Of a stretch of 64,000 nt of DNA, positions 12,017 through 36,171 are shown piece by piece (position 1 is the stretch's first letter; the number at the start of each line of letters is the position of its first letter). A program made the position numbers and the translations under genes. Location of the stretch: contig OY968768.1 of assembly GCA_963695215.1 (NCBI GenBank), forward strand, positions 1,824,922 through 1,888,921, given 5' to 3'. The notes beneath the pieces are model-generated. The model was not told the DNA's origin, did not search any database, and saw only the letters and a list, made by a program, of their open reading frames with translations. This DNA comes from an uncultured bacterium. GTDB lineage: Bacteria > Actinomycetota > Thermoleophilia > Solirubrobacterales > 70-9.

Positions 12017-12974
12017 CTATGACGAGAGCTCGTAGCCCAGTTCCTCGAGCATCGGCCCTGCGATGCGCTCGTAGGACGCGATCTCTTCCTCGGTCATCTT
12101 GTGGCGCCACGCCTCGAGGCGGTCCTCCCGGGGCGGCTCCTTCGCGAGCCTGTGCGACTCCATCCGAGCCTCGGCGGGCTGGGTAGGACCATGGCGGCGC
12201 ACGAGATCGACGTTCTTCTCCTGCAGGCGCTCTTCCGCGCGCTCGTGGTAATTGAGCATCGCCGGGTCGAAGTCGAGGTCGATGAGGCCGCAGACCTTGC
12301 GAAGGGTTCCCTCGGTGTCGCGGACGAGATCCTCGAATTTGACCTCGTGGTAGTGCTCGACCTTCGGCGCGATTCGCCGCGCCTTGCCGATGCGATCGGA
12401 CCAGAGCTGCGCAGACTCCTCGTAGGTCTCGGGACCCCAGTTCATTCGCATGTGGGAGAGGGAGACATCGCGGCCGTCGCGGATGATGTGGATGAAGCGC
12501 GCTTCGGGCAGGGTGCGCTGGATTCGCACCATGTCCTTGATGTAGCCGGGGGTCTTGTCGCCGTAGCGGGTCTTGCCCTCGCGCTCCGCGTAGAGCCTGA
12601 TAGAAGGCGCGGATCGCTTCGGTTGCGTTGCCGCGTTCTATGTGCCGCAGAGCGCTCGCGAAGCGCGTCTGCGTCGAGGTGAAACTCCTGCCAGCGCTTG
12701 GAGCCGATGACCAGATCTCGCGAGTTCGTCCGGCTTCAGCCGGTGCTGTTCGAGACGCCGGATCATCTTCGGAACCCAGTGCGTCTCGCCGGGGATGGCC
12801 ATGTCCGGATGCGAGTCGAGCATCAGGCGGATGAGCGTCGTGCCCGAGCGCGTGACCCCGCAAACGAACGGCGCCGGGGGCGGCACCGGTGCGTCGCTGA
12901 CCAGCCGCCGCTTGGCGACGATGATGCGGGCGCGCTTCTCTCAGCTTCCGGTACCTGCTCACGAGCGCGGCCAT
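12017..12974 (-). pseudogene. sulfotransferase ST1 (TPST/RaxST-like, Sulfotransfer_3-type), at least 4 frame changes as sequenced
   Basis: Pieces lie in different frames. They read MAALVSRYRKLRE / KRARIIVAKRRLVSDAPVPPPAPFVCGVTRSGTTLIRLMLDSHPDMAIPGETHW / SKRWQEFHLDADALRE / GNATEAIRAFYQ / MVRIQRTLPEARFIHIIRDGRDV..EVKFEDLVRDTEGTLRKVCGLIDLDFDPAMLNYHE..LEAWRHKMTEEEIASYERIAGPMLEELGYELSS. Confidence 0.8.
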
Positions 12975-12976
12975 TT

Positions 12977-14110
12977 CTAGCAGCGCCTCGAAGCCGCGAA
13001 CGGTGTGCTCCCACGCGCGCTCGCCGTCGCGAGAGCTCGAGCGCGCCGGCGCTCAGCCTCGCTCGCAGCTCGTCGTCTTCGGCCAGCCGGTCGATCGCCG
13101 CGGCCATCGCGGGGGTGTCGAAGGCGTGCGCGGGGATGCCCGAGCTTGGCCTCGCCGACGGGAATCGACGGAATCGTCAGGCCGTTCTTCCCATCGAGCG
13201 TGATTTCGTTCATCGGTGCGACGGCATTGGTGATCGCGGGCTGGCCGAAAGCCACTGCCTCGTAGAGGGGAAGGCCAAGACCCTCCCAGCGTGCGGGCGA
13301 CAGCGTTACGTCGGCGGCCGCGACCGTCTCCAGGTGCTGGCGTGTCGGCTCGTCGGCGATCCGCAGTTCGATTCGCGGGTCCTCGGCAGCGGCACGCTCG
13401 GCGTCGGCAAGGCGTTCGCGCTCAACCTGCGCCTTCACGATCAGCCGGGCCTTGTCGGACTGCACGTTCTGCCACGCCTCCAGCACCGGCTCGAGCGGCT
13501 TTCGCCTGCCGAGGAAACCGCCTGTGAACACGAACGTGACCAGCCCTTCCGAAGAGGGCGTCCCACGCTGCCCCGCATAGGGATCAGTGTGGGACGCACT
13601 TCGCCGTTCGGCGACCGACTCGGCTACGTCGATCAGCTCGGGATGACAACCCCACGGCACGTATGGAGTCTCGAGCCCCATCTCGCGATAGCGCTCCTGC
13701 TCGGCGCGGGTCATCGAGAAGACGACGTCGTACGCGTTGCGGGCTCCTTCGAGGTGGTCCGATGTGAAGTGCTCCCAGACGAAACGGCCGATCACCTTGA
13801 CGCCGCGGGAGCGCAGCTCGGCGAGCTCTGAGAAGCCGTAGTTCTGGTCGCACAGGATCGTCTCGATGCCCTCGCGCTCGACCCACTCGGTGTAGTCGGC
13901 GAGCGGGATGTCGTACTGCGAAGCCTCGGTCACCCCAGGCTGGTCCCAGACGTCGTCGCGCGAGAGCGCGCCTGGCTGGGGCCCGCGCTCCTTCTTCGGC
14001 CGGGCGAGCACGAATGTCTCGTGCCCAAGCGCGTCGATTGCCGAGCGCGTGTGCCGGCCCACCACGGGCTGCCCGCGGTTGAACCACTTGGTGACGACTC
14101 CGATTCGCAC
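12977..14110 (-). CDS. GT4/GT1-like glycosyltransferase, paralogue GT-a (C-terminal about 60 codons out of frame relative to paralogues)
   Basis: VRIGVVTKWFNRGQPVVGRHTRSAIDALGHETFVLAR..RWEGLGLPLYEAVAFGQPAITNAVAPMNE. The conserved tail (AAIDRLAEDDELRARL.. then WEHTVRGFEALLE) lies in two other frames. GTG 14110 overlaps the GT-b TAG stop. Confidence 0.75.
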   Translation of the reverse strand: MRIGVVTKWFNRGQPVVGRHTRSAIDALGHETFVLARPKKERGPQPGALSRDDVWDQPGVTEASQYDIPLADYTEWVEREGIETILCDQNYGFSELAELRSRGVKVIGRFVWEHFTSDHLEGARNAYDVVFSMTRAEQERYREMGLETPYVPWGCHPELIDVAESVAERRSASHTDPYAGQRGTPSSEGLVTFVFTGGFLGRRKPLEPVLEAWQNVQSDKARLIVKAQVERERLADAERAAAEDPRIELRIADEPTRQHLETVAAADVTLSPARWEGLGLPLYEAVAFGQPAITNAVAPMNEITLDGKNGLTIPSIPVGEAKLGHPRARLRHPRDGRGDRPAGRRRRAASEAERRRARALATASARGSTPFAASRRC

Positions 14111-15193
14111 TACGAGACGAGTCTCATGAGCTCGCCGTAACCCTCGACGGTGCGCGCCCATGAACGCTCGCCCTCGCGCAGCTCGCGGGCGCCGGCTGCC
14201 AGCTCGGCGCGGTTCTCGTCGTCGGCGATGCGGTCGATGGCCTGGGTGAGCTCTCCGGGATCCGGGCTCCACGAGGTGATTCCCGAACGCGCCGTGCCCT
14301 CGACCGTCGCGCTAACGAGGTAACCATTTTCGCCGTCGATCACGGCCTCGTTCATCGGCGCGTTGTCGTTGGTGATCGCCGGTTGGCCGAAGGCGATCGC
14401 CTCGTAGAGCGGGAGACCAAGGCCCTCCCAGCGGGTGGGGGTGAGGCAGACGTCGCATCCGGCGACGAAGCTGAGGTGCTGGTCGGTCGGCTGATCTTCG
14501 ATCAGGACCTGGATGCGCTCGTCGGCGTCCGCCGCCTTCTGCGAGCTTGCCCTCCTTGCGCGCCGTCTGGCCCTTGATGATCAGCCGCAGGCGCTCGTCC
14601 TTGGTCGCCATGAACCCCTCGAGCATCTCGTCGAGCGGCTTGCGGCGTCCCATGAAGCTTCCGGGCACGAGCAGACGTACGAGGCCGTCGTCTGAGCGCT
14701 GCGGCTCGACGGCGAGAAGCTCGGGGTGGCAGCCCCAGGTGACGTAAGGGCTGTCGATTCCCATCTTGCGGTAGCGCTCCTGCTCGCCGCGGTGGAGCGA
14801 GTAGACGACGTCAAGAGCTTCCTGCGCTCCCGCAACGTGCTCGTCGTCGAAATGCTCCCAGACGAAGCGGCCGATGGTCTTGACGCCGTCGGCGCGAAGC
14901 GCCGCAAGCTCATCGAACTGGTAGAGGTTGTCCGTCATGACGACGTCGAGCGAGTTGTCTGCGACCCACTGGCGATAGGTCTCGAGCGGCACGTCGGACT
15001 CGCCCGTCTCGGTCACGCCCGGCTGGTCCCAGATGGGATCGGGCACGTCGGTTTCAATCCCGGAGCGGGGGCCTGTTCCTTCACGGGCGAGGATGAAGGT
15101 CTCGTGACCGAGCTCGTCGAGCGCCGAGCGCACGTAGCGCGAGACCACTGCCTGGCCTGACGCGAACCACTTGGTGACGATGCCGACCCGCAT
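14110..15193 (-). pseudogene. GT4/GT1-like glycosyltransferase, paralogue GT-b (one apparent 1-nt insertion near 14537)
   Basis: MRVGIVTKWFASGQAVVSRYVRSALDELGHETFILAR..RLIIKGQTARKEGKLAE, then a frame change, then ADADERIQVLIEDQPTDQHLSFVAGCDVCLTPTRWEGLGLPLYEAIAFGQPAITNDNAPMNEAVIDGENGYL. The length is 3n+1. Confidence 0.8.
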
Positions 15194-16181
15194 CAACCCG
15201 CACGGCACATGCGCTTTGCCCTAAGGTGCTCATCAAGCATCCGACTGCGCGCGTCGACCGGCTCGCCGACCGGATAGCCCAGCTCTTCGAGGAGGTCGCC
15301 CGCGACCTCTTCGAACTCCTGGCGCTGCTCCTCGGTCATCTGCTTTCGCCAGCGCTGGACGCGATCTGCGCTCGGGCGGCTTTGTCGTCATCTCGTGGGT
15401 CTTCAGGCGCCGCTCGACCGAAAGCTCCTTCGACTTGCCGCCGCCGGGGAGCGCGCGAGCCATCTCCTGAAGGCGGTCGGCGGAGCGCTCGTGGTAGGTG
15501 AGGAGCTCGTCCTGCCACGGAAGCTCGAAGAAATCGCAGACGCTGCGAAGGACCGGCTCGGTGTCGAGGATCAGGTCCTCGTAGCGGATCTCCATGTAGT
15601 GCTCGAGCTGCGGGGGAGTCCTCGCGAGCCTTCGTGACCTTCTTCTGCCAGCGCTTGGCGACGTCGCCGGCGGTCAGGTCGCGAACGGTGCGGTCAAGAC
15701 CGAAAGCGCAACGTCGCGCCCGTCGCGGATCACGTGGCAGAAGCGCGCCTCGGGAAGGGCGCGCTGAATCAGCTTCATCTTCTGGACGTAGGTGGGAGTC
15801 TTCTCGCCGTAGCGCGGCTTGCCCTGACGCTCGGCGTAGATCTCGTAGAACGAGCGGACCGCGGGGCCCGGCCTTCAGCTTGGGAAGCGCGTTGAAGTGG
15901 CCGAGCATCTCCTCGTCGGAGATCTCGAAGTCGCCCCACTCGCGGTGCGCCTTCATGGCCTCGAGCACGCTCTCGGGCGTGGAGCCGTCGGCCTTTGCCG
16001 CTTTGATCATGTCCGGCACGAAGTGGGTCTCGGGCGGGATCGTGAGGTCCGTATGGGCGTCGAGCATCATGCGCAGGAGCGTCGTGCCCGAGCGGTTCAT
16101 GCCGACGACGAAGGGGAATGGAGCGCGGCTGGTGCCGCGCCGAAGGAAGGATGGGACCAGGACTGCCATAGCGGCTGCCAA
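15193..16181 (-). pseudogene. sulfotransferase ST2 (TPST-like), several frame changes
   Basis: PFPFVVGMNRSGTTLLRMMLDAHTDLTIPPETHF..HREWGDFEISDEEML.. / EIRYEDLILDTEPVLRSVCDFFELPWQDELLTYHE.. / ADRVQRWRKQMTEEQRQEFEEVAGDLLEELGYPVGE. TGA 15193-15195 overlaps the GT-b ATG (ATGA). Confidence 0.8.
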
Positions 16182-16184
16182 AGC

Positions 16185-17146
16185 CTACGAGGACGAAGCT
16201 CGGGCGTAGCCGAGATCGTCCAGAAGCTCGCCCGCCACCTCCTCGAACTCCGCCTGGTCCACGGCGCTCATGTCCTCGCGCCAGACCTCGATCCGCTCCT
16301 TGGTCGGCGGCTTGGTGGCCAGCGCGTGGGCCTTGAGGCGCTCGCCCGCGTCGCGCTCGGGCCGGCCGTCCTGGCGGGCATGGCGCCCGCCATCTCCGAG
16401 AGGCGGTCGGCAGCAGTCTCGTGGTAGCGGAGCATCCTGCGGCTCGAAGTCGATCTCGATGAAATCGCAGACCTTCCGCAAGGTCGGCTCGGTGTCGGCG
16501 ACGAGGTCCTCGTAGCGGATCTCCAGGTAGCTCGCCGAGCTTGGGGCCGTCGGCGCGAGCCTTCTCGATCCGGTTGCGCCAGCGCCGGGCCGAGCGCGCG
16601 GCCGGCAGCGGGTCGCGGTGGCCGCGCTCGGCGATGCGCCTGTTGTTCGAAAGCGTCACGTCGCGCCCGTCGCGGATCACGTGGATGAACCGCGCCTCGG
16701 GCAAGACGCGGTCGATCCGGCGCATCGCTTTACGTAGTCGGGCGTCTTGTCGCCCCACCGCGGCTTGCCCTGCTTCTCGGCGTAGAGCTCGTAGAACGCG
16801 CGAAGCGCATCCGAGGTGTTGAAGCGTGGGATCGCCTCGAAGCGGTCGAGCAGCTCGTCCTGTTCAAGTCCGAAGTCGTTCCAGCGCCGGTGCTCGTCCT
16901 CGACGATCGCGTCAAGCGCAAGGCGCGGGTTGAACCGAAGGCGCCCCGACGTGTCGTGGAGGCTCTGGAAGAAGTGGGTCTCCGGCGGCATGGCGACCTC
17001 TGAGGCCGGCGTCGAGCATCAGGCGCAAAAGCGTCGTGCCGGAGCGGCCGACGCCGACGATGAACGGGCGCGGGAGCGCCAGGCTCGGCGCTGCCGCGAA
17101 GCCGCCGCGGGCGCAGGCGCTTCGCGATGGCGGAGTCGTTCGCCAT
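16185..17146 (-). pseudogene. sulfotransferase ST3 (TPST-like), several frame changes
   Basis: MANDSAIAKRLRPRRL / LPRPFIVGVGRSGTTLLRLMLDA / PPETHFFQSL..HRRWNDFGLEQDELLDRF..FYELYAEKQGKPRWGDKTPDY / RRIDRVLPEARFIHVIRDGRDVTLS / RKVCDFIEIDFEP / KERIEVWREDMSAVDQAEFEEVAGELLDDLGYA, spread over three frames. Confidence 0.75.
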
Positions 17147-17189
17147 GGGCCGGGAAAGGCTAGCCCCGGCTCGCGGCCAGCGAGGCGAT

Positions 17190-18929
17190 TCAGGTGCTCG
17201 TCGAAGGTGTGCCGGTAGACGATTCCCTCGAACACAGCCCTCCCACTTGGCCGAGCCTTCGCCGGCGCGAAGTTCGCGCCAGGCGGCCTTCGCCTCGTCG
17301 GCACGGTAGATCTCGGTCCAAGCGCCGCCAGCTCGCGAGGATCTCCTCGAACACCGCGCGCGTCCCGTTCGATCTCCCAAGGCCGGTCGCGCCGGATCGG
17401 CGGCACTTCCGGGTGGGGGCCTCGAAGAAGGGCTGGTCCGTCCACTCGGGCACGAGCCGGCAGATCAGATCGAGATGGAGCCGATCCGTCGGTCCGGTCC
17501 TCGGGCTCGAGCGCAAATGATGCGCTTGATGAATCCCGGCGTTGCGAAGACCGAAATGCGCTCGGAGTCGGTCGCGAGCCCGGAGCGATGGGCGAAGCGG
17601 TCGACGAGGTAGAACCAGTCGAGGAGCACTGGTCCCTCGAGCCCGGCTCCGCGCCCCGGCGTCGAGCGATTGCGAGACGACCGGCGCGGCTTCCTCATAC
17701 GCCTCAGGCTGCGCAGCTTCGTGATCCTTTGCGAAGAACCGCATGATCCGCTCGGGGACCCGCTTCTTTCGCCGGGAGATCCTTCTTCAGCTGCTTCGAG
17801 TTCTTGTAGAAAAAGCCGTGGGCGATCTCGCCGCCGTGGCCCGACGAAGGTGGCGTCTTAGGACGGGGGCGCGGAAGGGTCATCTTGCCCCGGAGCTTTT
17901 GCGGGTGACGCACGCCGTCGTGAAGGAGGTGGAGGTTCGACGCTCGTTCGAGGAGGCCCGTGCTGGGCGTCGCGGTGCCTTCCTTCGGTCTTGGCTGATG
18001 CGATGTGGGGGGCCTTGGCGCGGCGTCGATCAAGCGCCGGGCGACGTCGGCTTCGCCAGGCGTCGCGTCCGAGGTGAGGAAGGTGGCCTCGGTGCCGGCG
18101 GCAACGACTGCGGCGGCGGAAAGCCTCGAGTCTCGGCCACCCGAGAGGTCGACGCTGGCCTCGCCCGGCCAGAGCTCCGCCGCGCTCGACGCCTGCGCCC
18201 TGGCGTGCTCGTCGGCCTCGCCGGTCAGCTCCTGGACAGCTCCCACTCGGCTTGACCCAGTCGCCTAGCGCACCGGTCCGTCGCGAGCTCACACCTTCAC
18301 TCGATGCCACGATCAACGGTGCCGCCCGGCAACCTGCGCATGCCTTCGATCGGCACTGTGTCAGCCAGGAACCACGACGCGGCTGCCAGCACCAGCCATG
18401 AGCGGGTATCCGCTCGTGCGTCGAGCCCGAGGAAGAGAACCAAGGCACCAGGGCGGTTCGACCATGCGGTTACGCCTTCCGCCTCCGCTTCGAAAAAGCG
18501 AGCGGCGCCGAGGGCGTCGTTCATCACGGTTAGTCGCTCGGAACGCTTGTCGAGCACGGCGGTCGCGGCCGGAGCGTTGAGCAGGCGGCTTGCGTCGTCC
18601 GGACGCTCGCTGAGCTTTCGGGCAAGGGCGAGCGGCGCCTCTAGGATCTCACTTTCATCCGCGATCCGCTGCCAACCCGTTGGGACATATGCGGTCGCGA
18701 TCGCCACATCATCGCCCACGGCAAAGTGGGGCCATCGGCAATGCGGCTCGGCGTCACCGATCGTGGCGACGCCACACGCGCCGGCGACTTCGCTCTTGAC
18801 GACCGTCGCGTAGTCGACGAGCTGCGCATAGTGCCGACGCACCCGTTCGAGCCGATCGCCGGCCCATTCGGATCGCGCACCCCCACGGGTTGCCCAGCAA
18901 AGCCAGGTCGGGTCGATGTTCTCGCCCAT
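17190..18929 (-). pseudogene. asparagine-synthase-like PP-loop ATP-pyrophosphatase family protein, heavily frameshifted; 3' end uncertain
   Basis: About 210-aa N-terminal domain (MGENIDPTWLCW..FAVGDDVAIATAYVPTGW..) without an N-terminal Cys nucleophile, then the PP-loop VDLSGGRDSRLSAAAVVAAG. Later pieces (LLDWFYLVDRFAHRSGLATDSERISVFATPGFIKRII, DLICRLVPEWTDQPFFE, AVFEGIVYRHTFDEHLNRLAG) lie in other frames. Confidence 0.55.
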
Positions 18930-18979
18930 TGCCCGCGAGGCTATCCGCGAGGGTTGCTCAACCGAGTAGAAAATGGGGC

Positions 18980-19399: not shown

Positions 19400-20065
<666 letters not shown>

Positions 20066-20069
<4 letters not shown>

Positions 20070-20290
20070 TCGATCTCCTGGATCTCGTAGTCCTCGATCA
20101 GCGGATTGGCGAGGAGCTTCTCGCAGAGCTCATTGAGGTGGCCTGCGTCGTCGGCTTCAAGTTCGACAAGCCGGCCGACCCGCACGTCGCGCACATCGTC
20201 GAAACCGAGCGCGGGAAGGGCGCGCTCGACCGCTTTGCCCTGCGGGTCGAGGATGCCTTCCTTGGGGCGGATGAGGACTCGTGCCTTCAC
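20066..20290 (-). CDS. purS: phosphoribosylformylglycinamidine synthase subunit PurS
   Basis: 74 aa from GTG 20290: VKARVLIRPKEGILDPQGKAVERALPALGFDDVRDVRVGRLVELEADDAGHLNELCEKLLANPLIEDYEIQEIE. The upstream part of ORF 20066-20560 is not PurS-like. Confidence 0.88.
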
Positions 20291-20304
20291 GGATGAGAAA
20301 GCTA

Positions 20305-21334: not shown

Positions 21335-21361
21335 ACGACGGACGCTACCCGCGTCTGTGTT

Positions 21362-27168: not shown

Positions 27169-28115
27169 TCATGCCGCGCGTGTCGCTTGCGGTGGTTGCC
27201 TGTGTCGAGGCCGGTCCACTCGAGGAGCAGGGGATCCTGCTTGTTCGAGTCCGTTCGGCGCTGGGCTGGTGCGTACTCGGACGCCCGATTGGTGAGCGTG
27301 GAGCCGCGCGGCGAGAGCGGGCTCGACCCCGCGACGCTCGCTGCATTCGAGCGCTTTGGAGTCGAGCGCCACGTCGAAAACCTGAACGTCGAGTTCGCCG
27401 ACAACCCCATGGCCAACCGCCTCTTTGCAGGCGCCTGGGCCGAGCAGGCACTCGGCGACGAGTCGATCGCGCTCGTCGATACCGACACCGTGTTCTTCAA
27501 CCCGCCCGACGACCTCGTCGACCTCGGGGACGCGGTCGCCGTGCGCCCGTCGGCCAGAAGAAGCGCGGTTCATCGGGCGCCGACGATCCCAAGGACCGCT
27601 ACTGGCGAGAAGATGTACAAGCTGTGCGGCACGCCCGAGGATGGGCCATGGGTCGAGACCGTGTGGACCGGCGATCGCATCCGCGGCTACTGGAGCGCCG
27701 GCGTGGTCGCGGCGCCGCCAGGGCGCGGCGTTTTTGGCATGCTGGCTCGAGAACTTCCGCACTCTCATCCGCGAGGACCACATCCCCAAGGCCGGGCCCG
27801 CGGAACATGGACCAGCTCTCGCTCGCCGCGACCCTTCCGCACGGTGACGTCAGAACGCTGGACGGGCGCTACAACTACCTCGTCCGCCGTCGGCCGAAGC
27901 TGCCGGCAGACCTTCAGGCGCTGGGCCTCGAGGAGATCGTCCATCTTCACTATCGCCACTGGTTTCATCAGCCGGGCTTCCTCGACCAGCTCGAGCCGCC
28001 CTTCCCGGCCTCGGAGCAGCTCGACTGGTTGACCGAGCGCCTGCCCCTCGTCCACCCAGGCGGCGAGGACGCGGGTCACGAGGGCAGCCGCTTCGCCCCC
28101 GACGCCGACCTCTAG
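27169..28115 (+). pseudogene. putative GT-A-fold (DxD) nucleotide-sugar transferase-like protein, at least 3 frame changes
   Basis: MPRVSLAVVACVEAGPLEEQGILLV / ..SIALVDTDTVFFNPPDDLVDLGDAVAVRP / GADDPKDRYW / EKMYKLCGTPEDGPWVETVWTGDRIRGYWSAGVVAAP / WLENFRTLIREDHIPKAG / MDQLSLAATLPHGDVRTLDGRYNYLV..VHLHYRHWFH. The family call rests only on the VDTD (DxD-like) context. Confidence 0.45.
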
Positions 28116-28121
28116 GCAGGC

Positions 28122-29147
28122 CTACTCGGTCCCCTCGGAGGGCTCGGGAGCCTCGGAATCTGCCTCGGGCGGCGGTGCCGGCGCAGCCTCCAGGCGCTTC
28201 TCGTAGGTCGCGCGGACGATTGGCGCCGAGCTGACACCGTCCCGCTCGAAGCCCTCAATCACTTCCACGTAGCGGGCCTCGATCTTCCGGTGCTTGCGCT
28301 CCGACAGGCCCTGTTTCCAGCGCGCGGTGTTCGCGTTGTAGTGGTCCATTTGCGCGAAGAAATAGCGCCGCATCCGGCGTCCGAAGCGAACCCCGACAAA
28401 GCGGGTCACCTCACGCGCGTCGTCATGTCGCGGCGGCGTGAGAATTCCCTCGAGGCTCACCTGCATCAACCGGTCCTTGGGGATGTGCCGGGCACCCTCC
28501 TCGATTCGGCGCATGCGCTTGTCGTACCAGCGGATTCCCTGCATCCGGGTTCGCGGGTAGACACGCCCCTTGGTCTGAGAGACGCGCGAGGCCGACGAGT
28601 CGCGCCCGTCGCGGATGACGTGGACGAACCTCGCTTCCGGAAACAGGCGAAGGAGGGTGGGCGCCGCGGCGATCGTGTCGCAGCTCTGCTCGATCAGGCC
28701 GCTCGCCTGCTTCTCGATCGCCCGGGGCCAGAGAAGGTCGATGAAGAGCTCGCGGCACGCGGCCTCGGGCGACTCGGGATCGAACGCAGCGTCGAACTTG
28801 GCAACGGCCTCTTCGAAGCGGTCCTCCGGGACGAACCTGAACATGCCGCGATCGCGGCCGTTGATGTTTCCCCGCCACCAGAAACCGCGGAGCCTCTTCA
28901 GAAACTGCTCCTTCGTCACACTGCCGTCGAGAAGGCCGGGGAAGCCCTTGTCCTCGACGTGGAAGCGGCATTCAACTCCGATCGCCGTCAGGCGCTTGTG
29001 CCGGCCGAGGAACTTGGCGACCACGTGAGTGCCGCTTCTGCCGGTGCCGCCGACGAAGATGATCGGGGTGATGTGCTGGGCAGGCCGGTCCGCGACGCCG
29101 TAGACGAGGCCCTCGGTGTGCCGGCGCCGGTTTGGGTCGAGCGTCAT
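28122..29147 (-). CDS. divergent sulfotransferase ST8, intact
   Basis: IFVGGTGRSGTHVVAKFLGRH (5'-PSB-like), ARFVHVIRDGRDSSASRVSQ (3'-PB-like), and an acidic C-terminal tail. ATG 29147 overlaps the ST9 TGA (ATGA). Confidence 0.8.
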   Translation of the reverse strand: MTLDPNRRRHTEGLVYGVADRPAQHITPIIFVGGTGRSGTHVVAKFLGRHKRLTAIGVECRFHVEDKGFPGLLDGSVTKEQFLKRLRGFWWRGNINGRDRGMFRFVPEDRFEEAVAKFDAAFDPESPEAACRELFIDLLWPRAIEKQASGLIEQSCDTIAAAPTLLRLFPEARFVHVIRDGRDSSASRVSQTKGRVYPRTRMQGIRWYDKRMRRIEEGARHIPKDRLMQVSLEGILTPPRHDDAREVTRFVGVRFGRRMRRYFFAQMDHYNANTARWKQGLSERKHRKIEARYVEVIEGFERDGVSSAPIVRATYEKRLEAAPAPPPEADSEAPEPSEGTE

Positions 29148-30085
29148 GCCTTGGAGCCAACGGGGTAGCCGAGCTCTGCGAGCAGGTCTCCTGCGACCTC
29201 CTCGTAGGCCGCCACATCCGCCTCAGGCATCTCCTCGCGCCAGCGCCCGGCGTTGGAGGCTTGAGGAGGCTGCTTGGCGAGAGCGTGCGCGCGAAGCCGC
29301 TCGGCGCCGGGTCGAAGGGGCCGACCGTCGGCTTCGGGCAGGTCCCGTGCCATCTCGCCGAGGCGCTCGCCGGCGCGCTCGTGATAGCTGGTCATCGCCG
29401 GGTCGAAGCCGAGGTCGATCGCCGAGCACACCTCCATCAGGATGCGCTCGGGCTCGGCGACGAGATCCTCGTAGCGGACCTCCCGGTACGCGGGCAGCTC
29501 GGCGCTGAGCCGGCGTCCGCGCAAGATCAGGCGCTGCCAGCGCTTCGCAAGCTTCGCGGGAGGCGGCGGCTCGCGTGGTGGATCCATTCCGCGCAGGCGC
29601 TTCGAATAGGAGAGCGCCACGTCGCGGCCGTCGCGGATCATGTGAATGAAGCTGGCCTCCGGAAGCGCAGAGTGGATGCGGTCCATGCGCTTGAGGTAGA
29701 GCGGCGTCTTGTCGCCCCAGCGCGTCGCTCCGTGTTTCTCGGCGTATAGCTCGTAGAAGGCTCGGAGCGCCTGACCGGGCACGGGCTTCTCGATCGCCTC
29801 GAGACGCCCGAGTAGCTCTCTCTCCTCGAGGCCGAAGTCCCCCCAGCGGTGGTGATCGTCAGTTGTGATCGCGTGCAACAGCGACTCGGCCGGCGCTGGA
29901 CGCTCGCGCCGAGCCGTACGGATCAGGGAGGGCACGAAGTAGGTCTCGGGTGGGATCGCCATGTCGGGATGCGCGTCGAGCATGAGCCGCAGCAGGGTCG
30001 TGCCCGAGCGGCCGACGCCGACGATGAAGGGGGCCGGCGCGCGCTCCGGGGCTCGGCGCTTGGGAAATCTCGGCAAGGGTGCCAT
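29144..30085 (-). CDS. sulfotransferase ST9 (TPST-like), intact
   Basis: APAPFIVGVGRSGTTLLRLMLDAHPDMAIPPETYF..HHRWGDFGLEEREL..RWGDKTPLY..ASFIHMIRDGRDVALS..RYEDLVAEPERILMEVCSAIDLGFDPAMTSYHE..AGRWREEMPEADVAAYEEVAGDLLAELGYPVGS. Confidence 0.88.
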   Translation of the reverse strand: MAPLPRFPKRRAPERAPAPFIVGVGRSGTTLLRLMLDAHPDMAIPPETYFVPSLIRTARRERPAPAESLLHAITTDDHHRWGDFGLEERELLGRLEAIEKPVPGQALRAFYELYAEKHGATRWGDKTPLYLKRMDRIHSALPEASFIHMIRDGRDVALSYSKRLRGMDPPREPPPPAKLAKRWQRLILRGRRLSAELPAYREVRYEDLVAEPERILMEVCSAIDLGFDPAMTSYHERAGERLGEMARDLPEADGRPLRPGAERLRAHALAKQPPQASNAGRWREEMPEADVAAYEEVAGDLLAELGYPVGSKA

Positions 30086-30216: not shown

Positions 30217-30255
30217 GAAGGGTCAGACCCTTCTCATGAACGGGGTCTGACCCCC
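30217..30255. repeat. inverted pair of the GGGTC(A/T)GACCC palindromic element straddling the purB stop
   Basis: GAAGGGTCAGACCCTTC (30217-30233) and GGGGTCTGACCCCC (30242-30255). The 11-mers GGGTCAGACCC and GGGTCTGACCC are exact reverse complements 11 nt apart. The purB stop (30234-30236) lies between them. Confidence 0.7.
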
Positions 30256-31526
30256 ATCTTCTCCAGTCTCGCCATCACTCCGGGCACCTCGCCGAGGTAG
30301 GCGTTGTAGTCGAGGACGGCGTCGAGATCGAGGTTTGGCGCCGCCCTACCGAGAAGGTCGCGGAACGGAGTTGCGGTGTCCCAGGCCTCCTGGGCGGCTG
30401 CCTGGACCGTCCGGTAGGCGTCGTCGCGCGTCATGCCCGAGTCGACGAGCGCGGTCAGGGCGCGCTGGGAGAAGATCGCGCCGTGCGTCAACTCGAGGTT
30501 GGCCCTCATCCGGTCGGTGTGGACGACCATGCCCGAGGCGACCCGCGTTGCCAGGTGCTGCATGTAGTCGAGGCCGATCGTCGCGTCGGGCAGGATGACC
30601 CGCTCGGCGCCTGAGTGAGAGATGTCGCGCTCGTGCCAGAGCGCCACGTTCTCGAGCCCCGTCTGGGCGTAGCCGCGCAGGACTCGTGCGAGGCCGGTGA
30701 TCCGCTCGCACGTGATCGGGTTGCGCTTGTGCGGCATCGCAGAGGAGCCCTTCTGCCCTTCCCGAACGGCTCTTCGGCCTCGCGGATCTCGGTGCGCTGC
30801 AGGTTTCGCATCTCGGTCGCGAAGCGCTCGAGCCCCGCGCCGGCGAGAGCGATCGCGGAAAGGAGCGCCGCGTGGCGGTCGCGCGGCACGACCTGGGTCG
30901 AGATGTCCTCGGAGCGGATGCCCAGCGACTCGCAGACGCGCCGCTCGATCGCAGGGCGGGACGGAGGCGTAGGTGCCGACCGCGCCAGAGATCGCGCCGA
31001 CGGCCGCGTCGGCGAACGTCGCCTCGAGCCGTTTCAGGTTGCGGTCGGCCTCGAACGCGAAGCCGGCCAGGCGGAGGCCGAACGTGGTCGGCTCGGCGTG
31101 GACGCCGTGGGTGCGCCCGACGCACAGGGTCTCGGCGTGGCTCGAGGGCACGGTCGCGCAGCGCGTCGCGGTAGGCGCGGGCGCCGGCGACGACGATCTC
31201 GCCCGCGTCGCGGATCTGCAGTGCGAGCGCGGTGTCGAGAACGTCGGAGGACGTCAGGCCGTAATGGATCCAGCGTCCGGCGTCTCCGCCGACCGAGTCG
31301 GCGACGACGTCCACGAATGCCGCGACGTCGTGGTTGGTGGTGCGTTCGCGCTCGGCGACCGCTTCGACTTCGAACGCGGCCTTCTGGCGCGCCCCGCGTC
31401 GCGGCCTCCTGCGGGCACGACGCCCTCGGCCGCCCACGCTTCGGTCGCCGCCAGCTCGACGGCGAGCCAGCCTTCCATCTTTCGGCGGTCGGTCCAGACC
31501 GCGCCGATCTCCGCGTGAGGGATCAA
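30234..31526 (-). pseudogene. purB: adenylosuccinate lyase, at least 4 frame changes
   Basis: MIPHAEIGAVWTDRRKMEGWLAVELAATEAWAAEGVVP / ..TNHDVAAFVDVVADSVG..WIHYGLTSSDVLDTALALQI.. / ..GVHAEPTTFGLRLAGFAFE.. / SSAMPHKRNPITCERITGLARVLRGY..LWHERDISHSGAERVILPD, lying in three frames. Confidence 0.9.
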
Positions 31527-31566
31527 GTGAGGCCTTTAGGTCCGAAATCACCGTGCGTTGGACCGA

Positions 31567-32088
31567 TCAGCAGTTGATGATCCGCGCGGCCAGGACTCCC
31601 GCGTTCTTCGAGCCGTCGATGGCGACACAGGCGACCGGGATTCCCGGAGGCATCTGCACCGCGGAGAGCAGGGCGTCGAGCCCGCCCAGCGACTTGCCCA
31701 TGATCGGCACGCCGATGACAGGCAGGTCGGTGTGTGCGGCGGCGACTCCGGGAAGCGCGGCCGACATGCCAGCTCCGGCGATGATCACTTTCAGCCCGCG
31801 CATCTGTGCGTTGTGGCAGTACTCGCGGACCTTCTCGGGGTCGCGGTGGGCGCTCATCACGCGGACCTCGTAGCGGATGCCCGCATCCTGCAGTGCCTGG
31901 CCGGCGGCCTGCATTTTCGGCTTGTCGTTCTTCGAGCCCATGATGATCCCGACGCGTGGAGCGTCGACTTCGATCTCCTCGAATGCGGACTCGACGTCCG
32001 GCATCGGCTCAGTCGGCGTCTTCTGTTCCGCAGTCTCGGCCGTTCCGGTCTGCGTTTCGGGCCGGCCGGGGGGGTCGGCAGCTTCCAT
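31567..32088 (-). CDS. purE: N5-carboxyaminoimidazole ribonucleotide mutase
   Basis: From ATG 32088, after an acidic/Pro-rich leader: PRVGIIMGSKNDKPKMQAAGQALQDAGIRYEVRVMSAHRDPEKV..GLKVIIAGAGMSAALPGVAAAHTDLPVIGVP..LLSAVQMPPGIPVACVAIDG. Confidence 0.9.
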   Translation of the reverse strand: MEAADPPGRPETQTGTAETAEQKTPTEPMPDVESAFEEIEVDAPRVGIIMGSKNDKPKMQAAGQALQDAGIRYEVRVMSAHRDPEKVREYCHNAQMRGLKVIIAGAGMSAALPGVAAAHTDLPVIGVPIMGKSLGGLDALLSAVQMPPGIPVACVAIDGSKNAGVLAARIINC

Positions 32089-32111
32089 TTTCTTCCTTCC
32101 TTTCTTCCGGC

Positions 32112-33395
32112 TTAGCCGGGGACTCGCTCGGTCGCCCTTGCGGCGATGTCGGTGCGCACTTGCATACCTTCGAAGCTGATTAGAGCGGCCGCCTCGTAGG
32201 CGCGGTCGCGTGCGTCGGCCGGGCTTGCCCCGAGCGCGGTTACGTTGAGAACGCGGCCTCCCGCGGTGACGACGCCGCCCTCGCTGTCGAGGGCGGTACC
32301 TGCGTGTGTGAGTTCGATTCCGTCGAGCGCGGCCGCCTCGTCGAGACCGGCGATCACGTCGCCCTTCGAAGAGGCGTCGGGATACCCGGCCGACGCGAGG
32401 ACGAGGGTCACGGCCCAGTCGTCGGCGAATTCCGCTCGGATCCCGGCCAGTCCGCCGCGCTCCCGGCTCGCGAGGCAGAGGTCGGCGAGATCGGATTGGA
32501 GCCGCGGCAGGACTGCCTGGGTCTCCGGGTCGCCGAAGCGCGCGTTGAACTCGAGGACCTTCGGCCCGGCCGATCCGATCATGAGCCCGGCGTAGAGGAC
32601 CCCGTGGAAGGGCGTGCCGCGATCGGCCATGAGCTCGAACGACGGGGCGATGGACGAGGTCGGCCAGTTGGTCCACCCTCTCAGCGTCTACGTCCGGGAC
32701 GGGCGAGTAGCTGCCCATGCCGCCGGTGTTCGGCCCCTCGTCGCCGTCGAAGATCCGCTTGTAGTCCTGCGCGGGAGCGAGCGGCACGACGTTCTCGCCG
32801 TCGCAGAGGGCCAGGAGGGACAGCTCCTCGCCGTCGAGGAAGTCCTCAAGCACTACCTCGGTCTGGCCAAAGCGCTGCTGGCCGAAGAACACGTCCACCG
32901 CTTCGCGCGCTTCGGATTCGTCCTGACAGATGATCACGCCCTTACCTGCGGCCAGGCCGTCGGCTTTGAGGACCACCGGGTAATCGGTGCTCGCCACAGC
33001 GTCCAGAGCCTCCTCCGAGCTGCGAAGGACCACGTGGCCTGCAGTGGGCACTCCGGCAGCGTCCATCAACTCCTTTGCGTGGACCTTGGACCCCTCGAGT
33101 CTTCGCGGCCTCGGCGCTGGGGCCGAAAGCCGGGATGCCCGAGGCCTCGAGCGAATCGACGGCCCCTTCACGAGCGGCGCCTCTGGCCCGACGACCACGA
33201 GGTCGACGCTTTCTGAGGTTGCCGCGGCGACGATCGCTTCTACGTCCTCGGCGCTCGACGTCGAGAAGGCGCGCGTCAGCCGCTATGCCCGCGTTGCCCG
33301 GCGCGCAGAGCACCTCCGGGCTACGGGCGCGAACGCCGGAGCGCGCGCACGATCGCATGCTCACGACCCCCGCCTCCTACGACAAGGATTTTCAC
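32112..33395 (-). pseudogene. purD: phosphoribosylamine-glycine ligase, at least 4 frame changes
   Basis: VKILVVGGGGREHAIVRAL / RSPEVLCAPGNAGIA / ..VVGPEAPLV..KELMDAAGVPTA..YPVVLKADGLAAGKGV..GPNTGGMGSYSPVP / ..FHGVLYAGLMIGSAGPKVLEFNARFGDPETQAVL..VLASAGYP..GGRVLNVTALG, lying in different frames. Confidence 0.9.
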
Positions 33396-33435
33396 GCGTG
33401 GCTTTCCGTTGGGGCCGGGGTCAGCGCGTCTCGCT

Positions 33436-33717
33436 TCAGATCGCGTCCGCGAACTTGTCGGCTGGGATCGCGACCAGGGTCTCAGAGGTCATCGTGCCGC
33501 GCGAGCCGAGCTCGACCGACACCTTGGCCATCGTCTCCGAGTCGGGGGCTTCGACGATGGTGACGAAGTCGTAGCGGCCGAGGACCGCGTACTGATCGAT
33601 CACCTTGGCGCCGAGCGCCTCGACTTCCTTGTTGACCTCACCAACGCGGCTCGGGTTCGACTTGAGGGTCTTCACTCCGTCCGCGGTCAGGTTCGTAAGC
33701 ATTACGTAGGTCGGCAT
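33436..33717 (-). CDS. GYD-domain protein
   Basis: MPTYVMLTNLTADGVKTLKSNPSRVGEVNKEVEALGAKVIDQYAVLGRYDFVTIVEAPDSETMAKVSVELGSRGTMTSETLVAIP. A GGGAGAG RBS lies directly upstream of ATG 33717. Confidence 0.8.
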   Translation of the reverse strand: MPTYVMLTNLTADGVKTLKSNPSRVGEVNKEVEALGAKVIDQYAVLGRYDFVTIVEAPDSETMAKVSVELGSRGTMTSETLVAIPADKFADAI

Positions 33718-33746
33718 CTCTCTCCCTTCGGGGTGGGAGATCCACA

Positions 33747-34202
33747 CTATCCGCTGATGAGCTTCTTCACCGCGTCGCGCCGGTAGTCGAAGATCCGCTC
33801 GAGGTCACGAGCCACGAACAGGCCGTGCGCAATTTCTCCAAATGGCCCGAAACCGACCCTGTAGCGGACGCGGTCGGAGGCCATCGTGCCTCCTTCGACT
33901 TCCTGAAAGGTGTGGGTGTGGTGCCAGAGCGCGTAGGGGCTCTTGAGCGCCATGTCGGTGAAGCGGTAGGGCGGCTCCCAGGTCTCGATTTCGGTGCGCC
34001 AGCGGACCGGTATTCCGTGGACGCGAAGGCGATATTCGATAAGCGCGCCCTCGCACATCTCGATCGGAAGCTGGGAGGTGATCCGGAAGTGGAGCCACGG
34101 CGGCGTGATCGCCTGGAGGTTTCCCGCGTCGGCGAACGGAGCGAAAACGTCCTCGACCGGGTGCGGGAAGAACTGCTCGCGCTCGAGCAGCCGGTCGGTC
34201 AC
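33747..34202 (-). CDS. SRPBCC (START/Bet v1-like) ligand-binding family protein
   Basis: VTDRLLEREQFFPHPVEDVFAPFADAGNLQAITPPWLHFRI..YRLRVHGIPVRWRTEIETWEPPYRFTDMALKSPYALWHHTHTFQEV. GTG 34202 overlaps the GT-c TGA (GTGA). Confidence 0.65.
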   Translation of the reverse strand: MTDRLLEREQFFPHPVEDVFAPFADAGNLQAITPPWLHFRITSQLPIEMCEGALIEYRLRVHGIPVRWRTEIETWEPPYRFTDMALKSPYALWHHTHTFQEVEGGTMASDRVRYRVGFGPFGEIAHGLFVARDLERIFDYRRDAVKKLISG

Positions 34203-35278
34203 CCGCCGACTTCGAGAAGTTGCCCAAGCGCTTCGACCGTGCGGCTCCACGAGAGCTCCTCGCGCCGTTCGAGTGCCCCTGCCTCGAGCGTGGAGCGCAA
34301 CTCGGAGTCGCGCAGCCGTTCGATCGCCCTCGTCAACGCGCGGCGGTCGGGGTCGAACGAGCCGATATCCGACCTCGGGCGCTGCTTCGAAGGCTTACCG
34401 GGAACCAAGAGGCCGTTGCGACCGTCCTCGACCACCTCGTTCATCGGCGGATTGTCGTTGGTGACTATCGGTAGGCCGAGTGCGGTTGCCTCGAAGAGGT
34501 GGAGGCCGAGGCCTTCCCAGCGGCTTGGTGCGAGGCAGACATCTGCCGAGGCGAAGAGGCGAAGGTGCTCGTCGGTCGGCAGGTCTTCGGCGATCACCTC
34601 GATGCGCTCATCCTTGCGTGCTGCGTCGCGCACGTCGCCGACCCCGCGCTCGACCTGCGCCTTCACGACGAGGCGGAGCTCAGGCCCCTTCGCCTTGCGA
34701 AATGCCTTGAGCGTCTCGCCAAGCGGTTTTCGCTTGGACATGAATCCGCCGGGAAAGAACAGGCGCACGACACCCTCCTCGCCCGGAGCCGGCTCCCGGA
34801 CCAGCTCGGGGTGGATGCCCCACGGAACCCGCGGCGTGTCGAGCCCGAGGGCCAGGTAGCGCTCGACCTCACACGCCGTCACCGAATAGACGGACGTCAG
34901 TGCGCGGCGTGCCGGCTCGACGTGCTCGGCGCCGAAGTGCTCCCAGACGAACCGGCCGTAGGTCCGCACGCCGGACTCGCGAAGCGCCTGGATCTCCTCG
35001 AACTGGTAGTTCTGGTCGAAGAGGGCGACGTCGAGCCGGTTGTCGCGTCCCCAGGCCAGCATCTCGTCGGCGGGGATCCGGTAGCTCGAAGCGATCGTCA
35101 CGCCCTCCTGGTCCCAGACCCCGTCCGAGTCGACGAACGACGGCTTGATGTTCGTGTCGCGGGTCGGACGGGCAAGAACGAACGTCTCGTGGCCGAGCGT
35201 CTCGAGCGCAGAGCGCAGCTGGCGGCCCACCACGCCCTGCCCGCGGTTGAACCAGTACGAGGAGACGCCGACGCGCAC
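34199..35278 (-). CDS. GT4/GT1-like glycosyltransferase, paralogue GT-c, intact
   Basis: MRVGVSSYWFNRGQGVVGRQLRSALETLGHETFVLAR..RFVWEHFGAEH..PSRWEGLGLHLFEATALGLPIVTNDNPPMNEVVEDGRNGLLV. It is collinear with GT-a and GT-b. The start lies 2 nt after the ST10 stop. Confidence 0.85.
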   Translation of the reverse strand: MRVGVSSYWFNRGQGVVGRQLRSALETLGHETFVLARPTRDTNIKPSFVDSDGVWDQEGVTIASSYRIPADEMLAWGRDNRLDVALFDQNYQFEEIQALRESGVRTYGRFVWEHFGAEHVEPARRALTSVYSVTACEVERYLALGLDTPRVPWGIHPELVREPAPGEEGVVRLFFPGGFMSKRKPLGETLKAFRKAKGPELRLVVKAQVERGVGDVRDAARKDERIEVIAEDLPTDEHLRLFASADVCLAPSRWEGLGLHLFEATALGLPIVTNDNPPMNEVVEDGRNGLLVPGKPSKQRPRSDIGSFDPDRRALTRAIERLRDSELRSTLEAGALERREELSWSRTVEALGQLLEVGG

Positions 35279-35280
35279 CG

Positions 35281-36171
35281 TCAGCTCCCGACCGGATAGC
35301 CGAGCTCGGCAAGAAGTTCGCCCGCGACCCCCTCGTAGTCAGCGATCTCGGTTGGCGTCAGATCGGTGCGCCACCGCTCGATGCGCTCGCTGGTCGGAGG
35401 TTCTGAGGTCAGAGCGTGAGCGGCGATCCGCTCTGAGCTCGGGCGGACCTGGCCGCCCTTGCCGGGTAGGTCGGAAAGTTCCTGCAGCCGCTGAGATGCA
35501 CCCTGGTGGTATTCGAGCATGGCCGGATCGAACTCGAGGTCGATCGCGGCGCATACCCTCCGAAGCGTCCCCTCCGGGTCGGCGATCAGGTCCTCGTAGC
35601 GAACCTCGTCGTAGTGCGCAACTGAGCGAGCCTGCTCACGTGCACCATCGATCCGGCGCTTCCAGGTCTCTGCCTCCTTCGCCGCGGGAGTCGGCTCGCG
35701 GCCTCGCTTCGCGGCACGAGCACGCCGGGAAACGGCGACATCGCGGCCGTCACGGATGAGGTGAATGAAGCGGGCCTGTTCGCCGAGCACGGAGCCGATC
35801 TGTGTAATCGCCTCGATATAGACCGGGGTCTTGTCACCCCACCGGGCCTTGCCGTGGCGGGCGGCGTAGGCGGCGTAGAAAGCGCGGATCGCACCTGCCC
35901 CGGCACCAGGTACCGTCGCGTTGAAGATCCCGGCCAGCTCCGCCTCCGAGAAGCCGAAATCCCGCCAGCCCGCGTGGGACTTGGCCGCGGCGACGAGCCT
36001 CGCTTCGCTGGGCTCGTCGCCTTCCGCGTACACCTCGATCAGCTTCGGCAGGAAGTGCGTCTCGGGTGGGATCGCCAGCTCCGGATGCGCGTCAAGCATC
36101 AGCCGCAAGAGGGTTGTGCCCGAGCGCCCGACGCCGACGACGAAGGGCGCCGGCTTCAGCGCGTCGCTCAC
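35281..36171 (-). CDS. sulfotransferase ST10 (TPST-like), intact
   Basis: KPAPFVVGVGRSGTTLLRLMLDAHPELAIPPETHF..RWGDKTPVY..ARFIHLIRDGRDVAVS..RYEDLIADPEGTLRRVCAAIDLEFDPAMLEYHQ..RIERWRTDLTPTEIADYEGVAGELLAELGYPVGS. GTG 36171 is chosen so the gene does not overlap clpB. The ORF stays open to 36264. Confidence 0.85.
   Translation of the reverse strand: MSDALKPAPFVVGVGRSGTTLLRLMLDAHPELAIPPETHFLPKLIEVYAEGDEPSEARLVAAAKSHAGWRDFGFSEAELAGIFNATVPGAGAGAIRAFYAAYAARHGKARWGDKTPVYIEAITQIGSVLGEQARFIHLIRDGRDVAVSRRARAAKRGREPTPAAKEAETWKRRIDGAREQARSVAHYDEVRYEDLIADPEGTLRRVCAAIDLEFDPAMLEYHQGASQRLQELSDLPGKGGQVRPSSERIAAHALTSEPPTSERIERWRTDLTPTEIADYEGVAGELLAELGYPVGS

Follow-up and report, generated by a model that had tools for sequence, protein, structure and literature searches.

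Sulfated glycoconjugates are rare in bacteria. Among characterised bacterial sulfation loci, the xss cluster for synechan in Synechocystis encodes two sulfotransferases (STs) alongside eight glycosyltransferases (GTs) (PMC8205485), the wps-1 cluster of Actinoplanes likewise encodes two STs (PMC13390465), and the authors of the synechan study noted that no sulfated polysaccharide had been reported from bacteria other than cyanobacteria (PMC8205485). Here, we analyze a window of 64,000 nt (67% G+C) from an uncultured Solirubrobacterales bacterium (contig OY968768.1, assembly GCA_963695215.1), in which ten ST genes, numbered ST1–ST10 by ascending window position, lie within 24 kb (12017..36171) in the company of GT genes and of genes for purine synthesis. 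A first-pass annotation of this DNA had considered ten STs in 24 kb to exceed any characterised locus, and the literature bears this out: the largest loci we found are those with two STs, and no characterised bacterial sulfation locus with more than two was found. On balance, and by a modest preponderance of the evidence, we read the array as a cytoplasmic system that O-sulfates, at multiple sites, a glycan or glycolipid built by the neighboring family 4 glycosyltransferases (GT4s).

Genes were called by third-position GC and homology. In a Pfam search, as proposed at first pass, all ten STs scored above the curated gathering threshold of PF13469 (Sulfotransfer_3; 27 bits). Eight core copies, resembling tyrosylprotein sulfotransferases (TPSTs), reached 118–135 bits, namely ST1 (12017..12974; 124 bits after stitching), ST2 (15193..16181; 123 bits), ST3 (16185..17146; 130 bits), ST7 (26261..27115; 132 bits), ST9 (29144..30085; 121 bits) and ST10 (35281..36171; 124 bits) on the minus strand, and ST5 (23576..24484; 119 bits) and ST6 (24484..25458; 135 bits) on the plus strand. 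The two divergent copies, both on the minus strand, scored 65 bits (ST8, 28122..29147) and 43 bits (ST4, 20305..21346), and their intact orthologues in L002 scored 70 and 68 bits, respectively (L numbers denote loci of relatives used for comparison, P numbers public proteins). Searches of ST4-like and ST8-like proteins against NCBIfam and PDB sequences gave generic or sub-threshold matches only. The motifs for binding 3′-phosphoadenosine 5′-phosphosulfate (PAPS), RSGTT at the 5′-phosphosulfate-binding (5′-PSB) site and RDGRD..S at the 3′-phosphate-binding (3′-PB) site, were found in ten of ten STs, in ST4 only once two frames are joined; ST8 reads GRSGTH, VEC and IRDGRDSSAS. Judged from these sequences, the original observation of ten STs with PAPS-binding motifs is correct and lies far beyond chance.

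All eight core copies were recovered by tblastn with intact ST6 as the query. They align over their full length with 66 invariant columns and approximately 50% pairwise identity, in keeping with the common layout described at first pass (PF[IV]VGxxRSGTT, PPET, GDKTP, IRDGRDV..S, YEDL, YHE, ..WR.. and AGxLLxELGY), and an estimate by eye that ST5 and ST10 agree at about half of their positions was matched by an aligned identity of 49–50%. The basic tail that had been included in this eight-copy layout is a feature of ST5, ST6 and ST9, and is not marked in the others. In ST6, 14 of the first 30 residues are Lys or Arg, and residues 4–26 are modelled as one long helix, with block means of the predicted local distance difference test (pLDDT) of 85–89 for residues 1–20 and 68 for residues 21–30; the tails of ST5 and ST9 are shorter. 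Possible ligands for these tails are a membrane surface or a polyanionic product. The ten STs are free-standing proteins of 284–341 aa, none of which has a hydrophobic or membrane segment (maximum 19-residue Kyte–Doolittle hydropathy ≤1.08), and are by their sequences cytoplasmic and soluble.

We then placed the family by structure and by profile. The AlphaFold model of ST6 (pLDDT 89, predicted template modelling score 0.85) matched human TPST1 and TPST2 and a tick TPST most closely in Foldseek (E ~1e-13 to 1e-12; template modelling (TM) score 0.54–0.66), followed by the OLS and CurM sulfotransferase domains (3e-10, compared with 2e-13 for the best TPST), with mycobacterial Stf9 and Stf1 and the cytosolic SULTs much more distant; 63 matches fell at E ≤ 1e-3, and the 50 of these that were listed are all sulfotransferases. 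At the sequence level, ST6 matched the OLS sulfotransferase domain (5.5e-16) and TPST1 (2e-15), then TPST2 and the CurM ST, and a 68-sequence family profile scored TPST1 at 95 bits, the OLS ST at 90, TPST2 at 84 and the CurM ST at 73. Across the eight core copies, PPET supplies a Glu and GDKTP a Lys at the alignment positions of the catalytic Glu and Lys of TPST1, and the Arg of RSGTT aligns with TPST1 as well. The profile alignment to TPST spans positions 13–229 of 311 and leaves the C-terminal positions 230–311 unaligned, a region that would hold the C-terminal catalytic Ser of TPST2 (S285). Matches to other bacterial ST families were weak: Stf0 (PF09037) was hit by ST7 only, at 20.6 bits and below the cut-off of 22, and the NoeE model (NF052394) gave an N-terminal match of 51 bits against a cut-off of 500. 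Together, these data support the assignment of the STs, by fold and clade, as predicted PAPS-type enzymes of the TPST-like branch of Sulfotransfer_3. The TPST half of the TPST/RaxST-like label given at first pass thus holds insofar as TPST ranks first by profile and fold, but the OLS ST is nearly tied with it (90 versus 95 bits), and because acyl-chain sulfotransferases (CurM/OLS) are equally close, 'TPST-like' as a sequence label leaves the acceptor unspecified.

Next, we compared the locus with its relatives. A one-genome-per-species scan gave 72 loci, nearly all from metagenome-assembled genomes (MAGs) of Solirubrobacterales, Thermoleophilia and Conexibacteraceae produced in several independent studies, to which two context loci were added for a total of 74. 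ST6 has thousands of homologues, the closest in MAGs of Solirubrobacterales and other Actinomycetota, and two contexts of ST6 orthologues show the same arrangement of pur, ST, GT4, cytochrome P450 (P450), SRPBCC and GYD genes. Purine genes were present in 65 of the 74 related loci, and in every locus that covers the span from purQ to purL (33/33), three to eight STs and one to four GT4s lie between the two, the two counts being correlated (r = 0.78). In nearly all relatives purC and purS flank a divergent ST4-like gene; the P450 is placed opposite purC. When 386 ST copies from relatives were clustered with the ten of the window, every window ST fell into a separate orthologue group, with approximately one member in each genome; the groups of ST2, ST1 and ST3 extend to 59, 56 and 30 of the 74 loci, respectively, and those of ST5, ST7 and ST9 to the nearest relatives only. 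ST7 has an exact match in a public protein collection. The ten copies of the window are the high end of the range (at most 9 per 20 kb elsewhere), and the sequences of the relatives exclude an assembly artefact as the origin of the array.

Because each paralogue has a single-copy orthologue group across genomes, the paralogues are, on comparative grounds, old and individually maintained, which agrees with the early impression of old rather than recent duplicates; positional orthologues in other genomes are 68–90% identical. Across the genomes compared, an ST/GT4 array embedded in pur genes is the rule in Solirubrobacterales and Thermoleophilia. Synteny had been named at first pass as a point on which the proposal could fail if the array proved both common and functionally assigned; the array is indeed common in relatives, but carries no functional assignment there. 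A full-text literature search found no papers linking sulfotransferases with Solirubrobacterales or Thermoleophilia, and among the Conexibacter, Solirubrobacter and Patulibacter papers listed there was no mention of 'sulfotransferase'.

The evidence on the acceptor comes from the company that the STs keep. Three GT4 genes lie on the minus strand of the array, as annotated at first pass: GT2 (12977..14110; 52% identical to GT4a of L002, with a frameshift near its 3′ end), GT1 (14125..15193; 86% identical to the same gene, with a single frameshift near 14536) and GT3 (34199..35278; intact). The L002 orthologue of GT3 is 86% identical and has an intact EX7E motif (EGLGLHLFE), and GT3 itself is matched at 100% identity by P0241, whose gene is on a public contig of 2.59 Mb; GT4 domains (PF00534/PF13692, Glycos_transf_1) were detected on the orthologues and on P0241. 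Many GT3 homologues have been auto-named diacylglycerol glucosyltransferase by the Joint Genome Institute.

At E ≤ 1e-30, a family profile search returned 3,424 representative clusters, a number that grew to 24,807 at E ≤ 1e-10. Among the best 150 representatives, 53 are at least 450 aa long, comprising 11 tandem ST–ST proteins (one with four ST domains) and 42 with other extra domains. Pfam identified these extra domains as GT2 (15), Glyco_tranf_2_4 (13) and GT4 (6), along with GT92, GT9, GT21, WbsX, RgpF, GT-D-like and NKWYS (capsular) domains and a Wzt-type ATP-binding cassette (ABC) transporter ATPase, the last in two distant family members; domains related to peptides, ribosomally synthesized and post-translationally modified peptides (RiPPs) or proteases were found in none of the 42. 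One of the 42, P0372, joins an ST to a member of a 299-aa partner family, and 15 loci have this partner inside their ST arrays. In the window this partner is encoded on the plus strand (27223..28109; frameshifted at ~27550–27735) and carries the motifs NKxY, DSDTVF, YWNxG and VHxHYHxW; it had no Pfam match even at E < 5 and no PDB match with a 15-sequence profile, and by eye only may be called GT-A/GT8-like. ST homologues of 490–566 aa were considered as informative fusions and rejected as tandem ST read-throughs. Longer public proteins, including P0363 (1298 aa), P0364, P0003 and P0013, hold two to four ST domains, and at least some of these are read-throughs across adjacent tandem genes.

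The arrays of relatives have also recruited other genes. With the sulfatase domain alone as the query, 9 of 74 loci were found to have, bordering the ST array, a formylglycine-type sulfatase (PF00884) whose C-terminal domain, SGSH_C, is of the N-sulfoglucosamine-sulfohydrolase type (L009, 10419–11834; L008, L016, L023, L043, L048, L060, L062 and L072); the window has no such gene. O-methyltransferases occur in 17–18 loci, where arrays of the Conexibacteraceae type add one or two methyltransferases including PF01596 (L021, L022 and 16 others), and in another clade a GT2/GT92-like gene lies between purQ and the ST4-like gene (13 loci: L008 and 12 more). Because of the GT fusions, the recruitment of sulfatase, O-methyltransferase and GT2/GT92 genes, and the invariable presence of GT4s, a sugar acceptor is the best-supported reading of these genomes. 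The first-pass annotation had left glycan, lipid and tyrosine side by side; the fusions in close relatives point to glycans.

We propose that the locus would be the Solirubrobacterales version of the purine operon, into which a lineage-specific glycan-decoration system has been inserted and maintained. In the cytoplasm, the three GT4 paralogues, probably with the 299-aa GT-A-like protein, would build a small glycan or glycolipid head group, and the ten soluble, PAPS-dependent STs would each O-sulfate a different hydroxyl or intermediate, yielding a multiply sulfated, strongly anionic glycoconjugate. We infer that the acceptor is a sugar, that each paralogue has its own site, and that the P450, SRPBCC and AsnB-like proteins act in the same pathway, the first two in hydroxylation or binding of a lipid aglycone and the third in carboxylate amidation; PAPS supply and export would be encoded elsewhere. 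A broader and bolder version, that Solirubrobacterales routinely make a cytoplasmic, polyanionic and hyper-sulfated, heparin-like oligosaccharide or glycolipid by means of site-specific TPST-fold sugar STs co-transcribed with purine genes, is tentative, and we would sooner doubt it than endorse it.

The AsnB-like gene (17180..18929, minus strand; frameshifted) encodes a PP-loop protein of 586 aa with only ~145 homologues and no Pfam domain. The AlphaFold2 model of its homologue P0121 (pLDDT 95) matched the hydroxyamidotransferase TsnB9 in Foldseek (1.6e-18, TM 0.67), followed by beta-lactam synthetase, AsnB and carbapenam synthetase (CarA). SGGRDS is invariant, and the protein starts MGEN with no Cys at position 2. 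Going by the model, the AsnB-like call therefore holds at the level of the two-domain fold, an Ntn-like domain plus a PP-loop synthetase domain, and since the N-terminal catalytic Cys is absent, the protein is no glutamine-dependent AsnB.

A number of observations weigh against the glycan reading. Pfam sweeps across the window turned up neither PAPS-synthesis genes nor an exporter, a priming (polyprenyl-phosphate) transferase or a precursor peptide, in agreement with the absence of PAPS-synthesis and exporter genes reported at first pass, and the window likewise has no flippase or ABC exporter and no genes for nucleoside diphosphate-sugar synthesis. None of the GT4s matched a characterised GT4 subfamily above threshold (NCBIfam, PDB), and the nearest solved structures to the STs, TPST1 and TPST2, are protein-tyrosine sulfotransferases. 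The correlation of ST and GT4 counts over the 33 loci is uncorrected for shared ancestry. Some of the public fusion proteins are read-through artefacts, although such an artefact still records gene adjacency. ST1–ST4 are not continuous open reading frames (ORFs) as sequenced, each having 1–5 frame changes and ST1 an in-frame stop as well. The P450 and AsnB-like genes may have no part in the system: the P450 stays in place even in loci where it has no ST beside it, and in most relatives stands alone between purB and purC, and the AsnB-like protein, whose distant Agilicoccus homologue is not located beside STs, was dropped as an obligate ST partner and has a weak link to the system.

The P450 is also the starting point for a different acceptor, namely a lipid or isoprenoid small molecule, with P450, ST5 and ST6 and the SRPBCC protein as binder producing a sulfated (possibly glycosylated) quinone or lipid. 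The P450 gene (22417..23546, plus strand; Pfam p450, 118 bits; single frameshift near 23200) heads a same-strand unit with ST5 and ST6, separated from ST5 by a 30-nt gap, after which the start of ST6 overlaps the stop of ST5 (ATGA), and its L002 orthologue has intact catalytic motifs (FGGGTRRCIG, AGHET and ETLR). The SRPBCC/Polyketide_cyc-type ligand-binding protein (33753..34202, minus strand) belongs, through its L002 orthologue (26 bits), to the lipid-transport family PF03364. There is a precedent in CYP128A1, which hydroxylates menaquinone-9 (MK-9) before sulfation by Stf3 (PMC7404182), and the closeness of the acyl-chain-acting CurM/OLS STs, level with TPST, fits as well. The solitary position of the P450 in most relatives tells against such a pathway, as does its failure to match any characterised CYP family above the cut-off; ten STs would be needless for a single hydroxylation, the family is fused to glycosyltransferases and not to lipid enzymes, and mycobacterial Stf1 and Stf9 are structurally much farther away than TPST. 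We therefore regard sulfation of a lipid as unlikely to explain the array, but it could hold for part of it beside the glycan model.

A similarly improbable account dispenses with a common pathway: tandem-expanded STs with unrelated acceptors (for example in detoxification) would have settled in permissive gaps of the pur cluster, with the GT4s as bystanders. ST and GT copy number and accessory content do vary widely between genomes, the family is large and diverse (the 24,807 representatives above), and to our knowledge the pur genes have no link to sulfation. The position between ST6 and ST7 is a variable slot for unrelated secreted proteins: in L001 it is occupied by a secreted CarboxypepD_reg-like protein of 645 aa, in L010 by a PD40 beta-propeller, and in the window by a 209-aa ORF (25485..26114, minus strand) with an N-terminal membrane anchor, lower third-position GC and no Pfam match, which, because the slot is variable, probably stands outside the system. 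Chance settlement is harder to square with paralogues that are single-copy positional orthologues in up to 59 of 74 loci, with GT4s that are always in the purQ–purL block, with recurrent ST–GT fusions in relatives, and with the overlapping, operon-like packing of the genes.

Tyrosine O-sulfation of one or several cytoplasmic or pre-export proteins, in the manner of TPST or RaxST, is disfavoured and in our estimate quite improbable, even though TPST1 and TPST2 rank first by both profile and structure and TPST1 can be aligned with the STs at the catalytic Glu and Lys and at both PAPS-binding motifs. The near tie with the OLS ST and the restriction of the TPST alignment to positions 13–229 of 311 blunt this resemblance. 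Moreover, the window holds no precursor peptide, protease or peptide exporter and the genes of relatives are too tightly packed to hide one, 0 of the 42 fused relatives have a peptide-related partner and most have a glycosyltransferase, and the STs are soluble and lack the membrane anchor of TPST.

Finally, we considered the state of the genes themselves. Six of the ten ST genes annotated at first pass (ST5–ST10) are intact ORFs, but ST1–ST4 are broken as sequenced: ST1 has three frame changes and the in-frame stop, ST2 approximately four frame changes and ST3 approximately five, and in ST4 a frameshift near 21217 parts the RSGTT motif from the remainder. Frameshifts also occur in GT1, in GT2, in the P450 and in the AsnB-like gene. 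Housekeeping genes are affected as well, with purB, purC, purD and dnaK (42990–44600) changing frame several times; the window is indel-rich in patches, and purL and clpB are intact. After frame correction, ST1–ST3 retain all 66 invariant residues and are 70–90% identical to intact orthologues (90% for ST2 and its L002 counterpart). No homopolymer runs were present at the four junctions inspected (ST4, GT1, P450 and purD). That ST1–ST4, GT1, GT2 and the P450 are true pseudogenes of a decaying relic no longer functional, as their multiple frameshifts and stop and the position of the inspected sites off homopolymer runs might suggest, is the least credible of the alternatives and hardly to be expected. 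The breaks most likely reflect assembly indels rather than decay of the genes, because essential purB, purC, purD and dnaK are broken likewise, because corrected ST1–ST3 keep every invariant residue and sit in the most widely conserved orthologue groups (that of ST2 being the widest), and because the source is a MAG, a single public contig of 2.59 Mb, with similar split genes in a related long-read MAG.

The array as a whole is interleaved with eight purine-synthesis genes (purF, purL, purQ, purS, purC, purB, purE and purD) and the GYD gene. In transcription order, a first minus-strand run comprises clpB, ST10, GT3, SRPBCC, GYD, purD, purE, purB, ST9 and ST8; in the middle region ST7 is on the minus strand and the 299-aa gene, P450, ST5 and ST6 are on the plus strand; and a second minus-strand run comprises purC, ST4, purS, purQ, the AsnB-like gene, ST3, ST2, GT1, GT2, ST1, purL and purF. 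The junctions ST1/purL, ST4/purS, ST9/ST8 (a 4-nt overlap), ST10/GT3 (2 nt apart) and ST5/ST6 are 0–16 nt apart or overlapping, and this packing looks operon-like. The accessory genes listed at first pass (P450, SRPBCC and AsnB-like) are all present.

Within the second run, all on the minus strand, purC (22304 to 21365; SAICAR synthetase) has at least three frame changes, purS (20072..20296) and purQ (19400..20065; glutaminase subunit of formylglycinamidine ribonucleotide (FGAM) synthase) are 95% and 89% identical to their L002 counterparts, purL (9712..12000; FGAM synthase II; Pfam AIRS, AIRS_C and FGAR-AT_linker) is an intact gene of 762 aa that starts ~16 nt past the ST1 stop, and purF (8093..9553; amidophosphoribosyltransferase; Pfam GATase_6/7 and Pribosyltran) flanks the array at the end of the same-strand run. 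In the first run, also on the minus strand, purB (30252..31511; adenylosuccinate lyase) shows several compensating frame changes, purE (31573..32088) is 88% identical to that of a relative, and purD (32115..33395; glycinamide ribonucleotide synthetase) has three frame changes. The GYD-domain protein (33439..33717, minus strand) is 95% identical to the L002 copy and always has GT3/SRPBCC on one side and purD on the other; its conserved Gly-Tyr-Asp is reminiscent of a site of tyrosine sulfation, a resemblance only. GYD proteins are widespread outside this lineage. This protein and the 209-aa ORF were set aside as candidate protein substrates on account of that wide distribution and of the variable slot, respectively. 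Directly upstream of ST10, clpB (36182..38776, minus strand; 864 aa, intact) flanks the array and is a conserved neighbor in closer relatives. In L002 (18991–19875), L006 and L066, a RES toxin gene and an adjacent 112-aa gene, likely its antitoxin partner, lie between the ST10 orthologue and clpB.

Elsewhere in the window lie recQ, the chaperone genes hspR-dnaJ-dnaK, genes for hydrogenase maturation, an inositol-lipid cluster and further housekeeping genes. The hydrogenase-maturation genes (a HypB-like GTPase and HypF) are at positions 3–5605 together with a nickel transporter of the NicO type and a regulator of the Fur family, a gene set in keeping with hydrogen oxidation as a way of life in soil. 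The inositol-lipid-type cluster (47867–52983, plus strand) encodes a PAP2_3 phosphatase, a CDP-alcohol phosphatidyltransferase and myo-inositol-1-phosphate synthase, together with an unusual 670-aa fusion of a GT4 glycosyltransferase and a PHP phosphoesterase. Located 12 kb from the array, this cluster could be the source of a glycolipid scaffold.

The retention of six to ten individually conserved STs beside GTs in an abundant, poorly studied soil order, even in genomes of ~2.5 Mb, implies a sulfated molecule, hitherto undescribed, that is important and probably abundant. If the proposed function is true, such a molecule would be an extra sink in the soil sulfur cycle, the STs would form a panel of regiospecific sugar sulfotransferases useful for heparin-like compounds, and the TPST branch of the fold would not be restricted to tyrosine but extend to a new acceptor class. 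The hard-wiring of the system into the purine operon is a separate puzzle of genome organisation.

How the locus differs from known systems can be stated enzyme by enzyme. TPST1 and TPST2 (PDB 5WRI/5WRJ and 3AP1) share PF13469 with the window STs, are their best profile and fold match, and have the 5′-PSB, 3′-PB and catalytic Glu/Lys in common with them, but identity is only ~22–25%, TM scores are 0.54–0.66, and the C-terminal third of the window STs (~80 residues) is unaligned. TPST is a type II membrane protein with a lumenal catalytic domain, whereas the window STs are without a membrane anchor, and their genomic and fusion context points to glycans, not peptides. The 'activating' ST domains of CurM and OLS (PDB 4GBM and 4GOX) are nearly as close as TPST and share PPE(T/L)H around the catalytic Glu; those, however, are domains in polyketide synthase (PKS) modules, with an acyl carrier protein (ACP) and a thioesterase, that act on beta-hydroxyacyl-ACP, and Pfam found no PKS, ACP or thioesterase domains in the ST locus.

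Xanthomonas RaxST is a cytoplasmic bacterial enzyme of the Sulfotransfer_3 type. The RaxST-RaxX-RaxABC system has one ST, and in contrast to it the window has no RaxX-like precursor and no RaxA/RaxB exporter in Pfam sweeps. NoeE and NodH (Nod factor) and Stf0 (sulfolipid-1) provide examples of bacterial PAPS-dependent sugar O-sulfation on molecules of the glyco-lipid type, but use a single ST per modification, and the window's matches to NoeE and Stf0 lie below the respective cut-offs of 500 and 22 bits. The mycobacterial cyp128-stf3 sulfomenaquinone operon, in which a P450 gene is followed by ST gene(s) in an actinobacterium (PMC7404182), resembles P450-ST5-ST6 in gene order, but has one ST and no GTs, and the relatives of the window P450 are mostly not beside an ST. 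The synechan xss cluster likewise has STs clustered among many GTs, for a sulfated glycan, and differs in having two STs, eight GTs and Wzx/Wzy/PCP export genes on a megaplasmid (PMC8205485), whereas the window has ten STs, three or four GTs and no export, polymerisation or priming genes, and lies inside a chromosomal pur operon. Compared with the characterised loci, the lack of export genes, the multiplicity of STs and the pur-operon context are new.

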